DNA from: an uncultured Enterobacteriaceae bacterium | GTDB taxonomy: Bacteria; Pseudomonadota; Gammaproteobacteria; Burkholderiales; SG8-39 | DNA length: 62,742 nucleotides | NCBI GenBank assembly: GCA_964601155.1 | Contig: CAZRMO010000004.1 | Location: forward strand, 1-62,742 | Direction: 5' to 3' | Part shown: piece by piece, positions 7,109-9,181 of the stretch | How the letters are laid out: each line of letters starts with the position of its first letter | How positions within the stretch are numbered: the stretch's first letter is position 1 | Position numbers and translations under genes: made by a program | Notes under the pieces: generated by a model | The model's database searches: none | What the model was told of the DNA's origin: nothing | Seen by the model: the letters and a program-made list of their open reading frames with translations, nothing else

Positions 7109-9181
7109 TCAACCCGGCCCCCGTGCAAAACTTGCACGCAACGCGATCTGTGTCCACACGCGATCGAAGACCTCGAGCACCTCGTCCGCGCTCTGCAGGC
7201 GTTCAGCCGGATCCTTGGCCAGCATGCCGTCGACCAGCACCTGGTAGTCCGACAAGGCATCCGGCAGCCGCGGCACCGGGGCGTGCACGTGTTGCGTGAT
7301 CAACTCGACGATGGAACCGCCGTCGAACGGCCTCTCGTTCATGAGCATTTCGTAAAAAATGATGCCCAGGCTGTAGATGTCGGAGCGCTCGGTCGCCGGC
7401 TTGCCGTTGGCCTGCTCCGGTGAGATGTAATAGGGCGTGCCGAAGAACTCGCCGTGCACGGTCCGGTCCATCCCCTGGGTACGCTTGGCGATGCCGAAAT
7501 CGGCCAGCGCCATGGTGCCGTCGGCGCGCAACATCATGTTGGCCGGCTTGACGTCGCGGTGCACGATGCCGAGGCGATGGATCTCCGCCAGTGCTGCGGC
7601 CGCCTGCGCCAGCAGCGACATCGCTTCGCGCGGCGTCAGGCCCTTGGCGATCTGGTCCTTCAGGCTGCCGCGGGTGAAATACTCCATTGCGATATAGGCG
7701 TAGTCGTCGGTGAACCCCTTGTCGTAGATTCTGACCACGTTCTTATGATCGATGTCGGAAATCAACGCCGACTCCTGGATGAAGCGCTGCAGCAGTTGCT
7801 TGTCGTCACTGGGCTTCGCGTTGAGTATCTTAAGGGCTACCTGCGCGCCGTCGCTATCGCGCTCGGCGAGGAACACATTGGACATTCCGCCTTCCCCGAT
7901 CTTTTTCAGCACCCGATACCCTTTGATCTGCAGCGGCCGGCCAGCCGCAATCGCCCGCGACAGTTCACTGGTGATGATGCGCAGCGTTTCCGACAATGCC
8001 GCTTTGGCGGCGCGCGCGGTCATTTGTGCATTTTCCGCGAGCGCCTCGCGCAGCGATACGGGTACCGTGATCGACCCCTCCGGCGCGCCGGCAGCGACGC
8101 CAACGCCGATGACTTCCACGGCCTCGATCGGCGCATCGCGGCCGCGCAGCTCCAGCATGCGCGACTCCCCGGTGGTCACCAGGCTCCCGGCCATGCTGAC
8201 TGCGGCCGCGCTCGCCACCAGCGGCCAGCCCAACTCCTTGGTCTGCCCCTCCAGGCGCGAAGCGACGTTGACGCTGTCGCCCACCACGGTCAGGTCCTCG
8301 GCTCCGAGGGGTCCGATGCGCACCTCCATCAGCTCGCCGGTATGAATTCCTACGCCGGTCGCGAATTCGGGCATCGCCCCCAGATCGAAGTGCTGCTTGA
8401 ACCATTCGCCGAATTTGTTCGCCGCAAGCACGATACCCAGACCGGCTCGGATTGCCCGGTAGGCATGGTTATCCTCGCCGTCCTCGACGCGCGCATCGAA
8501 CACCACCATGATGCCGTCGCCGATCAGCTTGGCAATGCGACCGCCGCTGCGCACGATCGGCTGGCACACGGCCTCGAAATAAGCGTTGAGCAATTCGGCG
8601 ATTTGGCCGGCGGTGAGACGCTCCGAATAAGTGGTGAAATTGCGGATGTCGGCGAACAGCACCGTTGCTACGGTCATTTTGCCGGTCATGCCGGCGGTTT
8701 CCCCGAACGCCATCGGCCGCTCGGCTTCGGCACCGGTCAGGTTCTGCCGGTACCAGCGCCTAAGCTCGTCGTTTCCGGAGACCAGGCGCTGTGCCAGCGA
8801 GCGCACCGCGTTCTCGTATTTTTTGAGCCTCGAATTCACGGCTTCAGTCAGCTCTTCACGCGAAAACGGTTTGTTGAGAAAATCGTCCGCGCCAAGGTTC
8901 ATGCCACGGCGCATGCTGCTCCTGTCGTTGAGTGCCGTAAGGAAGATGAACGGCGTGTCGGCGAAGCGCGCATCAGCGCGCAGCGCCTCCAGCATGCCGA
9001 ATCCGTCGAGCTGGGGCATCATGACATCGCTGACGATCAGGTCCGGCGCGAAGCGCTTGGCATGCTCGACGCCGGCGCGCCCGTCCTCGGCCGACTCCAC
9101 CTCGTAGCCTTCCCCCTTGAGCATCAGCGTCACGTTCAGGCGGATCGCCGCCTCGTCCTCGACTACCAGGATTTTTTTCAT
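7109..9181 (-). CDS. Multidomain protein: response-regulator receiver + class III adenylate/guanylate cyclase + Hanks-type Ser/Thr kinase
   Basis: REC: ILVVEDE, DLIVSDVMMP, FLTA, KPF. Cyclase: VLFADIRNFT, KLIGDG, GIHTG, VVGDSVNVASRLE. Kinase: IGEGGMS, VALK, HRDVKPAN, DFG, GTPYYISPEQ, SDIYSLG. Confidence 0.9.
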   Translation of the reverse strand: MKKILVVEDEAAIRLNVTLMLKGEGYEVESAEDGRAGVEHAKRFAPDLIVSDVMMPQLDGFGMLEALRADARFADTPFIFLTALNDRSSMRRGMNLGADDFLNKPFSREELTEAVNSRLKKYENAVRSLAQRLVSGNDELRRWYRQNLTGAEAERPMAFGETAGMTGKMTVATVLFADIRNFTTYSERLTAGQIAELLNAYFEAVCQPIVRSGGRIAKLIGDGIMVVFDARVEDGEDNHAYRAIRAGLGIVLAANKFGEWFKQHFDLGAMPEFATGVGIHTGELMEVRIGPLGAEDLTVVGDSVNVASRLEGQTKELGWPLVASAAAVSMAGSLVTTGESRMLELRGRDAPIEAVEVIGVGVAAGAPEGSITVPVSLREALAENAQMTARAAKAALSETLRIITSELSRAIAAGRPLQIKGYRVLKKIGEGGMSNVFLAERDSDGAQVALKILNAKPSDDKQLLQRFIQESALISDIDHKNVVRIYDKGFTDDYAYIAMEYFTRGSLKDQIAKGLTPREAMSLLAQAAAALAEIHRLGIVHRDVKPANMMLRADGTMALADFGIAKRTQGMDRTVHGEFFGTPYYISPEQANGKPATERSDIYSLGIIFYEMLMNERPFDGGSIVELITQHVHAPVPRLPDALSDYQVLVDGMLAKDPAERLQSADEVLEVFDRVWTQIALRASFARGPG

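Follow-up and report, generated by a model that had tools for sequence, protein, structure and literature searches.

Bacterial genomes are known to encode multidomain signaling proteins that combine several output domains (PMC1183210). As summarized in that source from Kasahara and Ohmori (1999), CyaC of Spirulina and Anabaena is a class IIIb adenylate cyclase with receivers that is activated by phosphotransfer. The protein encoded at our locus appeared to share with CyaC a receiver (REC) preceding a class IIIb Lys/Thr cyclase and, presumably, His-Asp phosphotransfer as its input, and the CyaC catalytic domain (1WC0) matched its cyclase homology domain (CHD) with an E-value of 1.3e-17 among PDB sequences. 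CyaC, however, has its own histidine kinase module and no Ser/Thr kinase, whereas at our locus the histidine kinase has its own gene and the cyclase is followed by a Hanks kinase. Response regulators of the REC-Pkinase type belong to the same REC and kinase families and are true relatives: L019 and L023 from Rhodoferax and L026 from Ramlibacter sp. Leaf400 were 49-54% identical to our protein in REC and kinase, but lacked the ~190-residue cyclase domain between them. To our knowledge, none of these REC-Pkinase proteins has been characterized.

The individual domains have well-known counterparts as well. The photoactivated cyclases OaPAC and bPAC (5X4T and 5M27; E-value, 2e-19) share with our CHD the Lys/Thr, metal-binding Asp, and Asn/Arg pairs and a basic residue at Asn+10, yet they carry a BLUF sensor instead of a receiver, possess no kinase, and have Lys-Arg (KR) before the specificity Thr where our protein has Ala-Glu (AE), a pair that is not conserved. 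PknB of Mycobacterium tuberculosis and StkP of Streptococcus were the best sequence and fold matches of our kinase, and its unusual glycine-rich loop, GxGGMSxV, is presumably the same in PknB. In contrast to both, our protein has neither a transmembrane segment nor PASTA domains, and a receiver, not an extracellular sensor, would provide its input; the Stk1/PASTA equivalog NF033483 scored 260.2 bits against a cut-off of 450, with the kinase domain alone matching (profile positions 9-267 of 563). A Hanks kinase and a class III cyclase also occur in one chain in the TOMM kinase/cyclase fusion TIGR03903 and in Arthrospira NIES39_A07100 (kinase-GAF-PAS-cyclase; PMC2853384), where the kinase comes first and no receiver is present, unlike the cyclase-then-kinase order seen here. 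Our protein scored 148.2 bits against the TIGR03903 cut-off of 705.75 and falls outside that family. In animal receptor guanylyl cyclases, a helical dimeric linker joins a kinase fold to a class III cyclase; the two domains work as a coupled pair, of which one member is often a pseudoenzyme. Their kinase is inactive and their cyclase active, whereas in the family described here the kinase is nearly always intact and the cyclase often seems dead (31 of 43 representatives); domain order and input also differ, and the cyclase residues of our own protein are intact.

Thus, the receiver-cyclase, receiver-kinase, and kinase fold-cyclase links are each already known. In the literature searched, no protein was described in which an intact adenylate cyclase and an intact Hanks kinase share one receiver in a single chain. 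Our data favored, with a probability of about 0.6, a dual-output response regulator in which the kinase would be the near-constant output and the cyclase would serve as a dimer scaffold and, in the clade of our protein, also as an active adenylate cyclase.

Domain organization of the REC-CHD-kinase protein

The gene lies on the minus strand at 7109..9181 of the window (the whole 62,742-nucleotide stretch analyzed), stop codon included, exactly where the preliminary description had placed it. This open reading frame of 690 codons plus stop encodes a 690-aa response regulator, as identified from its translation, Pfam domains, homologs, and contig continuity. All three Pfam domains (REC, cyclase, and kinase) scored above their curated cut-offs. 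Conservation was assessed in 113 full-length sequences, comprising the query and 112 homologs at ≥56% identity. The REC domain (residues 4-116; 8834..9172, minus strand) matched PF00072 with 98.6 bits against a cut-off of 30.2 over the entire profile (1-111 of 111) and adopted a (beta-alpha)5 fold in the AF2 model (pLDDT, ~90). Of its key residues, D9 of the acidic pocket, the phospho-acceptor D52, the switch residue T82, and K104 were present in 113/113 sequences, and the other pocket residue, E8, was Glu in 108 and Asp in 5. Linker 1 (residues 117-167; 8681..8833, minus strand), delimited by AF2 secondary structure and identity tiers, continues REC alpha5 as a single long helix (108-148) followed by a loop (150-165) at pLDDT <50; its identity fell to 33.5% in the 56-59% tier, in which the domains retained 57-66%. 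The helical segment that precedes the cyclase domain in 6FHT had no detected homolog here, the alignment with that structure beginning only at residue ~162. The REC-to-CHD connection contains this ill-conserved, low-confidence loop and not a continuous coiled coil running into the cyclase, a point that weighs against the dual-output reading.

The class III CHD (residues 168-360; 8102..8680, minus strand) was delimited by PF00211, alignments with PDB sequences, conservation, and the ATP ligands of OaPAC. Guanylate_cyc PF00211 matched residues 172-317 with a modest 51.1 bits (cut-off, 21.9), in an alignment that did not reach the N..R region; full-length coverage was obtained with PDB sequences, residues ~165-362 matching chain residues 8-197 of 208 in Cya2 (2W01; E-value, 6e-22) and OaPAC, CyaC, CyaB, and bPAC also aligning. 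The AF2 model showed an alpha/beta fold, mostly at pLDDT 78-95. The catalytic residues are the metal-binding D178 (FADI) and D222 (KLIGDG), the specificity residues K218 and T298, the transition-state residues N305 and R309 (NVASR), and K315, aligned with a gamma-phosphate ligand. D178, D222, and R309 were found in all 113 sequences, N305 in 112, T298 in 111, and K218 in 110. Linker 2 (residues 361-421; 7919..8101, minus strand; 41.3% identity in the far tier) contains a predicted helix (375-413) that connects the CHD with the kinase N-lobe. The Hanks-type, PknB-like Ser/Thr kinase (residues 422-669; 7175..7918, minus strand), identified by PF00069, PDB sequence matches, Foldseek, and conservation, scored 179.8 bits against a cut-off of 31.7. 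Its glycine-rich loop (GEGGMSNV), K451 (VALK), E470, D543 (HRD), N548, D561 (DFG), T582, E589 (SPE), D601, and R661 were invariant (113/113).

StkP/PknB gave the top PDB sequence matches for residues 421-669 (E-values, 1e-42 to 1e-49), and PknB was among the top Foldseek matches of the full-length model (TM, 0.73-0.86); that search returned kinase structures exclusively and therefore speaks to the kinase fold, not to the cyclase or the domain arrangement. The AF2 monomer model comprised three well-folded domains with two long helices between them, at a pTM of 0.42. A match to the NCBIfam MADS6 kinase (153.8 bits against a cut-off of 460) was attributed to generic kinase similarity, and a defense-system reading was rejected. 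The single three-domain polypeptide of the preliminary description was borne out, each domain having a complete catalytic residue set: the acidic pocket, phospho-Asp, and Lys that it assigned to REC correspond to E8/D9, D52, and K104, its cyclase motifs (ADI, GDG, the Lys of KLIGDG, the Asp before TVVGD, and NVASR) are all in the sequence, and so are its Gly loop, VALK, HRD, and DFG.

Distribution of the family and decay of the cyclase

The family is small and its architecture rare: among the 150 best-matching cluster representatives, drawn from 1.84 billion, 43 combined REC, CHD, and kinase, and full-length genome matches came nearly all from Burkholderiales/Betaproteobacteria. The triple fusion had been called uncommon, a view that this count supports, as does the failure of literature searches to find a characterized homolog or any description of a REC-CHD-kinase protein. 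Residues of distant representatives were assigned from pairwise BLAST and rechecked on a MAFFT L-INS-i alignment; few residues changed, and the intact and variant classes stayed the same, except for P0237, which was unaligned over REC and CHD. Assignments for GTDB loci were based on tblastn. The kinase K/D/N/D set was kept in 41/43 representatives (the exceptions being P0129 and P0147) and the full receiver D-D-T/S-K set in 32/43, while all three sites were intact in 8/43. The earlier statement that all motifs are intact thus holds for the window protein, but describes a minority state across the wider family, where the cyclase is often dead or absent. Because nearly all relatives keep the kinase site while most have a dead cyclase or none, the kinase appears to be the core, near-constant output of the wider family; likewise, since the cyclase active site is lost in most members, cyclase activity seems dispensable for the core function.

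A possible, although rather doubtful, alternative to the dual-output reading is that the CHD is a structural dimerization or transducer module producing negligible cAMP and that the protein is simply a receiver-controlled Ser/Thr kinase. It draws on the 31/43 representatives with variant or degenerate cyclase residues, on nine REC-kinase proteins among the 150 that lack a CHD and retain intact REC and kinase sites, and on a neighbor-joining tree of the kinase domain (without support values) in which intact, degenerate, and absent cyclase states were interspersed, as well as on the modest PF00211 score. Seven further representatives combined a CHD-like domain with a kinase and lacked REC, with variant cyclase residues in all of them. 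However, the complete D-K-D-T-N-R set, kept in 12/43 representatives, persisted down to ~40% identity, which is not expected of a purely structural domain, and the six canonical residues and K315 were invariant or nearly so in the 113 sequences down to 56% identity. With far-tier identities of 57% for CHD, 66% for REC, and 62% for kinase, against 33-41% for the linkers, the CHD in the ≥56% clade seems to be under a constraint comparable to that on REC and kinase, which also argues against a mere scaffold.

The converse alternative, in which the true output is the cyclase, regulated by a kinase that autophosphorylates its own protein and has no separate substrates, was considered unlikely. Animal receptor guanylyl cyclases, with their kinase-homology domain, offer a parallel, and the CHD and kinase are connected here through the long helix 375-413. 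Against this, the domain order is reversed relative to receptor guanylyl cyclases, and the kinase has every catalytic residue and does not resemble a pseudokinase. Moreover, almost every relative with a dead or missing cyclase retained the kinase catalytic residues, and kinase function would therefore be independent of the cyclase.

Substrate specificity of the cyclase

The second specificity position, seven residues before the catalytic Asn, was Thr298 in a HMMER alignment with solved cyclases, in which LTVVGDSVN of the query aligned with YTILGDAVN of OaPAC and YGVVGAQVN of Cya2. Asp296, the Asp ahead of TVVGD, sits at -9 from the catalytic Asn, two residues upstream of Thr298, and was present in only 71/113 sequences (D71/E26/T9/A4/G2/S1). 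The protein therefore does not carry the Lys/Asp pair of class IIIa/c/d adenylate cyclases; it keeps the specificity Lys (K218) with Thr298 in place of Asp, both aligning with OaPAC. This combination is the class IIIb signature, in which Thr replaces the substrate-binding Asp, and the prokaryotic class IIIb enzymes examined were reported to be stimulated by CO2/bicarbonate (PMC2613629). By these residues, our cyclase is class IIIb-like. cAMP is its likely product because Lys218/Thr298 is the class IIIb pair; the conclusion of the preliminary description on ATP thus still stands as likely, but its basis, a Lys/Asp pair, was wrong. All characterized Lys/Thr class IIIb members that we know of are adenylate cyclases.

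The remaining nucleotide contacts were compared with those of ATP-bound OaPAC, whose ligands are Asp156, Ile157, Ser159, Phe160, Ser161, Asp200, Arg283, and Gly269. The DIRNFT loop (DIxxFT), whose backbone binds phosphates in OaPAC, was conserved, and K315, at Asn+10 and invariant, occupies the position of Arg283, which binds the ATP gamma-phosphate. The replacement of KR by AE was considered as a decisive catalytic defect, a missing phosphate-binding Arg, and rejected: that pair is not among the OaPAC ATP ligands, and Arg283 corresponds to K315, although the OaPAC complex is in a non-productive conformation, which limits what can be read from the absence of KR among the ligands. It is very improbable that the product is cGMP or another cyclic NMP instead of cAMP. 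The nearest PDB sequence was that of Cya2 (2W01), a guanylyl cyclase, and the relative from cultured Ramlibacter humi (L008) carries Gln and Gly in place of the specificity pair, so that specificity may vary within the family; however, the aligned positions in Cya2 are Glu and Gly, not the adenylate cyclase pair Lys218/Thr298 of our protein.

Operon and gene neighborhood

The REC-CHD-kinase gene closes a tight operon of three genes, following those for a PAS histidine kinase and a single REC. Its start codon, the ATG at 9181, shares bases with the TGA that ends the preceding receiver gene (ATGA) and comes after a Shine-Dalgarno-like GGAGCAGGAG, an arrangement pointing to translational coupling of the two genes. 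This receiver gene (124 aa; 9178..9552, minus strand; PF00072, 88.1 bits) was present only in the ≥81% identity tier, with a 73% identical ortholog in L004 and none in L001-L003 or L005-L007. It is preceded by a 716-aa sensor histidine kinase gene (9555..11705, minus strand), which stops 2 nt ahead of the receiver gene start and encodes a hydrophobic N-terminal region, two PAS domains, HisKA, and HATPase_c, as identified with Pfam. A histidine kinase ortholog, 48-80% identical, lay directly upstream of the target in 7/7 loci (L001-L007) of the ≥55% clade, and the 716-aa protein is thus the putative cognate partner of the receiver. A promoter-like site, TGGACA-18-AATAAT (10/12; 11778..11807, minus strand), found by consensus scan alone ~70 nt upstream of the histidine kinase start, is a weak candidate for the operon promoter, and the scan found no terminator-like site on the minus strand from 11705 to 7109.

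Further upstream, a stand-alone cNMP-binding protein of 199 aa (12637..13236, minus strand; PF00027, 65 bits) is separated from the operon by a gene on the opposite strand. In its GEMSMIDGEPRFAT, comparison with PKA and CAP points to a phosphate-binding cassette whose Glu and Arg are kept. It could possibly act as a cAMP receptor, but the linkage is weak: an 83% ortholog lies 6.8 kb upstream in L004, a 31% relative lies beside the gene in L005, and the other loci have none. As a conserved partner it was consequently rejected and kept as a hint only. Downstream GT2 and DUF2064 genes were likewise discarded as parts of the system, being non-adjacent in the 56-58% tier and separated by another gene in L004.

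Proposed mechanism and significance

In the dual-output model, the PAS membrane histidine kinase encoded just upstream would sense a signal and phosphorylate Asp52 of the receiver; the single-domain receiver would probably be phosphorylated too, acting as a competitor or phosphate sink. Phospho-Asp52 could alter dimer geometry through the alpha4-beta5-alpha5 face and the long helix 108-148, setting two cyclase domains in a head-to-tail class III dimer with two active sites, each built from D178, D222, the DIRNFT loop, and K315 of one chain and K218, T298, N305, and R309 of the other. The dimer would then convert ATP to cAMP, as expected of the class IIIb Lys/Thr pair, and together with helix 375-413 might hold two PknB-like kinase domains together, the pairing of which could lead to trans-autophosphorylation of the activation loop and to phosphorylation of substrates. 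We infer the phosphotransfer, dimerization, cAMP synthesis, and kinase activation, as well as their order, and the homodimer is an assumption based on the known behavior of class III cyclases and PknB, the model itself being a monomer.

A bolder and tentative version, possible rather than probable in our estimation, holds that a single phospho-Asp input acts on one dimer with two chemically distinct outputs, the cyclase dimer being an obligatory platform that would produce cAMP and also place the two kinase domains for activation, with cAMP and Ser/Thr phosphorylation emitted jointly. A common target of the two signals, perhaps the nearby cNMP-binding protein, is even conceivable. If this version were true, the family would form a natural series of active cyclase, pseudo-cyclase, and no cyclase, would mirror the receptor guanylyl cyclases of animals, and would show an enzyme domain turned into a pure signaling scaffold. 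Should both outputs be active, the protein would be a compact signal bifurcation, relaying a His-Asp phosphorelay to a diffusible second messenger and to protein phosphorylation at once. The protein opens no long-standing question. Its relatives provide a comparative set (8 representatives with all sites intact, ~30 with a decayed cyclase, and 9 with the cyclase deleted, cultured Ramlibacter being among the relatives) that could probe the class III cyclase dimer as a pure scaffold for kinase activation.

Integrity of the gene fusion

A frameshift, chimeric assembly, or sequencing error joining separate genes, which had been raised as a way to refute the fusion, was effectively ruled out because more than 110 full-length homologs from independent assemblies, including cultured Ramlibacter genomes, were colinear, an independent 6,828-nt contig matched 7538-9700 across both domain junctions with 0 differences, no indels occurred in the gene among four sequencing runs, and 7/8 strain SNPs were synonymous in the 690-codon frame. 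Nothing in favor of an artefact was found apart from short unitig breaks near 7536-7570, which coincided with a depth of 30-54x, against ~10x elsewhere, at the conserved HRD/KPxN kinase motif; these breaks are repeat-induced branching of the assembly graph and not a gene-gene junction.

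Domain organization and reality of the fusion

The interval 7109-9181, assigned to the protein in the preliminary description, corresponds to an open reading frame on the minus strand (690 codons plus stop). Upstream extension of this frame is possible up to 9466, and the start was placed at 9181 because MKKILVVEDE forms the N-terminus of all homologues, the ATG shares bases with the stop codon of the preceding gene (cgATGAaa), and GGAGCAGGAG precedes it. Three Pfam domains, each scoring over its curated cut-off, were identified in the product: Response_reg (REC; residues 4-116, 98.6 bits), Guanylate_cyc (residues 172-317, 51.1 bits), and Pkinase (residues 422-669, 179.8 bits). 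Pfam aligned the cyclase only in part; against PDB sequences, the cyclase homology domain (CHD; ~165-362) matched Cya2 (2W01; E 6e-22) end to end, with further alignments to CyaC, CyaB, and two photoactivated cyclases, OaPAC and bPAC. StkP, PknB, and PknA were nearest to the kinase. In the AlphaFold2 model (47 family sequences as input; mean pLDDT, 79), the receiver adopts a (beta-alpha)5 fold with its final helix prolonged to residue 148. A loop of low confidence (150-165) precedes the alpha/beta cyclase domain (168-360), and another long helix (375-413) precedes the bilobal kinase, which can be superposed on PknB (TM, 0.73-0.86).

The three-domain fusion is real, as the preliminary description had assumed in treating it as one polypeptide, and the alternative that the fused frame is an artefact was refuted. 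The homology search matched at least 120 clusters, at least 112 of which are 670 aa or longer with the same three Pfam domains, and homologues split into two tiers, at 81-92% and 56-59% identity. Many salt-marsh metagenome runs contain the stretch; one run yielded a contig of 6,828 nt that matches 7538-9700 with 0 differences and spans both domain junctions, and two further runs provided contigs over 7000-8905 and 7236-8804. Four metagenome runs showed no insertions or deletions here, and 7 of the 8 strain SNPs in the frame are synonymous. At 7536-7570, which encodes the conserved HRD...KPxN kinase motif, the graphs assembled from four metagenome runs are broken or branched, and depth climbs from ~10x to 30-54x. 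Because this spike coincides with the motif, the breaks were read as graph branching, with short unitigs from other kinases collapsing there.

Conservation of the three catalytic sites

The claim that all receiver, cyclase, and kinase motifs are intact held when conservation was profiled over 113 full-length sequences (the target and 112 homologues at ≥56% identity). Receiver residues D9, D52, T82, and K104 are invariant, and E8 is Glu in 108 and Asp in 5. The kinase motifs (G429/G431/V436, K451, E470, H541-R542-D543, K545, and N548), as well as D561-F562-G563, T582, E589, D601, and R661, are likewise invariant. The cyclase shows no variation at D178, D222, or R309; K218 is kept in 110 of 113 and N305 in 112 of 113. 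The assignment of an Asp as the second purine-specificity residue was wrong, since HMMER alignments place 'LTVVGDSVNVASRLE' opposite 'YTILGDAVNVAARLE' of OaPAC and 'YGVVGAQVNLTYRIE' of Cya2, making Thr298, at -7 from the catalytic Asn, the relevant position. Thr298 is found in 111 of 113 sequences, and D296, at -9, is variable (D 71, E 26, T 9, A 4, G 2, S 1). The resulting Lys/Thr pair disfavors a nucleotide other than cAMP as the cyclase product.

In the OaPAC structure with bound ATP, the two Asp, the D-I-x-S-F-S loop backbone, two Mg ions, and Arg283 hold the triphosphate (bioRxiv 10.1101/2023.09.05.556344). Arg283 lies 10 residues past the catalytic Asn; its equivalent in the target is K315, invariant in family alignment A1, and the phosphate loop has the sequence D-I-R-N-F-T, in which F182 and T183 do not vary. 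Whereas OaPAC has a basic KR pair before the specificity Thr, the target has AE; the KR pair is not among the listed OaPAC ATP ligands (bioRxiv 10.1101/2023.09.05.556344). Identity to the target in the 56-59% tier is 66% for REC, 62% for the kinase, and 57% for the cyclase domain versus 33-41% for the two linkers, thus pointing to a constraint on the cyclase comparable, at the domain level, to that on its neighbors. Collectively, the residues support three functional sites.

Genomic neighborhood

Three head-to-tail genes are closely packed on the minus strand. The first encodes a sensor histidine kinase of 716 aa (9555-11705), which is hydrophobic over its N-terminal third and carries two PAS domains, HisKA, and HATPase_c. 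The gene for a single-domain receiver of 124 aa (9178-9552) begins 2 nt past the histidine kinase stop and overlaps the third gene, the target, by ATGA. A promoter-like site (consensus match only) lies ~70 nt 5' of the histidine kinase, and a consensus scan found no terminator-like sites inside the cluster. An orthologous PAS-HisKA-HATPase gene (48-80% identity) lies immediately 5' of the target homologue in all seven loci of the ≥55% identity clade (L001-L007), which marks it as the putative cognate kinase; the extra receiver gene occurs in the close tier only (L004). Residues 1-210 of the histidine kinase, a strongly hydrophobic region predicted to contain several membrane segments, match no Pfam family, and orthologues in the 56-58% tier are ~120-150 residues shorter, aligning from ~290-345 on.

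A stand-alone cNMP-binding protein (199 aa; 12637-13236, minus strand; PF00027, 65 bits), without a DNA-binding domain, is encoded 3.5 kb upstream of the target, with an opposite-strand cobalamin adenosyltransferase gene between. In its 'GEMSMIDGEPRFAT', the phosphate-binding cassette residues Glu and Arg are retained. An 83% orthologue lies 6.8 kb off in L004, in L005 the target homologue has a 31% relative directly beside it, and no relatives were found at L001-L003 or L006-L007. This protein is an attractive candidate receptor for cyclase-made cAMP, but its linkage to the operon is weak, being kept in the closest relatives only. Directly 3' of the target, two minus-strand genes share 59 nt, one encoding a family 2 glycosyltransferase (6362-7051) and the other a DUF2064 protein (5755-6420); the pair is probably unrelated to the signaling operon, since in L004 another gene separates it from the target homologue. 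In L001 (13926-16213), genes for a HAMP-domain protein and for an additional, unrelated Pkinase (468 aa, DUF8082) are located ~2 kb 3' of the 56%-identity REC-CHD-kinase homologue.

Distribution and evolution of the architecture

In an exhaustive HMMER scan of cluster representatives (1.84 billion, clustered at 50% identity), 174,657 proteins reached E≤1e-30, and essentially every one was a kinase. Among the best 150 of these, only ~31 gave a single colinear match over residues ~1-670. Classification of the same 150 by BLAST, followed by MAFFT alignment, yielded lower-bound counts of at least 43 representatives with REC, CHD, and kinase, at least 9 with REC and kinase lacking the cyclase domain, and at least 7 with a cyclase-like domain and kinase lacking the receiver, in agreement with the earlier view that the triple fusion is uncommon. 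The D-K-D-T-N-R cyclase set was complete in only 12 of these 43; 4 of the 12 had lost receiver or kinase residues, leaving at least 8 clusters intact at all three sites. The remaining 31 carry cyclase substitutions (e.g., GRNASR, ERDTEA, SREKSK, and AKGTNR), the kinase K/D/N/D set is kept in 41 of 43, and the full receiver D-D-T/S-K set in 32 of 43. On a neighbor-joining tree of the kinase columns only, without support values, intact, degenerate, and absent cyclase states are interspersed (P0126, DKDTNR, groups with P0127, ERDTEA; P0131, DKDTNR, with P0166, which has no CHD), suggesting, as an indication, that the cyclase was lost repeatedly.

Full-length matches in one-per-species GTDB genomes came nearly all from Burkholderiales, Betaproteobacteria, or Comamonadaceae (Ramlibacter, Polaromonas), with a few MAGs labeled just Gammaproteobacteria or Pseudomonadota; the CHD-less form is carried by Rhodoferax MAGs and Ramlibacter sp. 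Leaf400. The cultured Ramlibacter humi strain 18x22-1 (NZ_SMLK01000012.1; locus L008, 6001-8019) has a full-length homologue (46% identity) whose D-Q-D-G-N-R cyclase keeps the metal Asp and Asn/Arg pairs with Gln/Gly at the specificity positions, and its nucleotide specificity may be altered. Four Ramlibacter loci (L016, L020, L021, and L024; ~5900-9700) encode a degenerate cyclase-like domain plus intact kinase without a receiver, with a second kinase gene directly next and one or two single-domain receiver genes ~1.8 kb downstream, which looks like a split version of the module. Two Burkholderiales MAG loci (L014 and L015, 6001-8067; 36-37% identity) encode full-length proteins with both cyclase metal Asp replaced, by Ala and Gly, making them predicted natural pseudo-cyclase variants; their kinase residues are intact, and receiver D9 is Ser in L014 and T82 is Ala in L015.

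Proposed mechanism and comparison with known systems

The family pattern says that the kinase would be the near-invariant output, with the cyclase fold kept even if catalytically dead. Such retention fits a structural role for the fold, most simply as an obligate dimer coupling the receiver to a kinase pair. That the target's own cyclase is merely such a scaffold is disfavored, since exactly the catalytic residues are strictly conserved in its clade; a kinase serving solely as a cis-regulator of the cyclase is also disfavored, as the kinase persists in relatives without a working cyclase. We prefer a model, inferred beyond the presence of the residues, in which the target would be a response regulator with two outputs. 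The upstream histidine kinase would phosphorylate D52, the single-domain receiver possibly competing for phosphate, and the receiver with its extended alpha5 helix would rearrange the dimer. The head-to-tail cyclase dimer would produce cAMP and, via helix 375-413, bring two PknB-like kinase domains into position to trans-autophosphorylate and to phosphorylate substrates. Receiver control of the cyclase is the weakest link, because the connection is broken by a loop (150-165) that is poorly conserved and of low confidence.

The target is a real and rare protein assembled from familiar parts, and a literature search of incomplete coverage found no REC-CHD-kinase protein described or tested. Cyanobacterial CyaC couples a receiver to a class IIIb cyclase, and known receiver-kinase fusions are relatives of the target. 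Animal receptor guanylyl cyclases join a dead kinase to a live cyclase, of which most of the target's family is the mirror image. Known kinase-cyclase fusions (TIGR03903; Arthrospira NIES39_A07100, PMC2853384) have the opposite domain order and lack a receiver, and the target is not a TIGR03903 member (148 bits versus a cut-off of 705.75). In a survey of the signaling helix (S-helix), this element was reportedly never found upstream of a eukaryote-type Ser/Thr kinase (PMC1592074), so the long helix before the target kinase is probably a different element.
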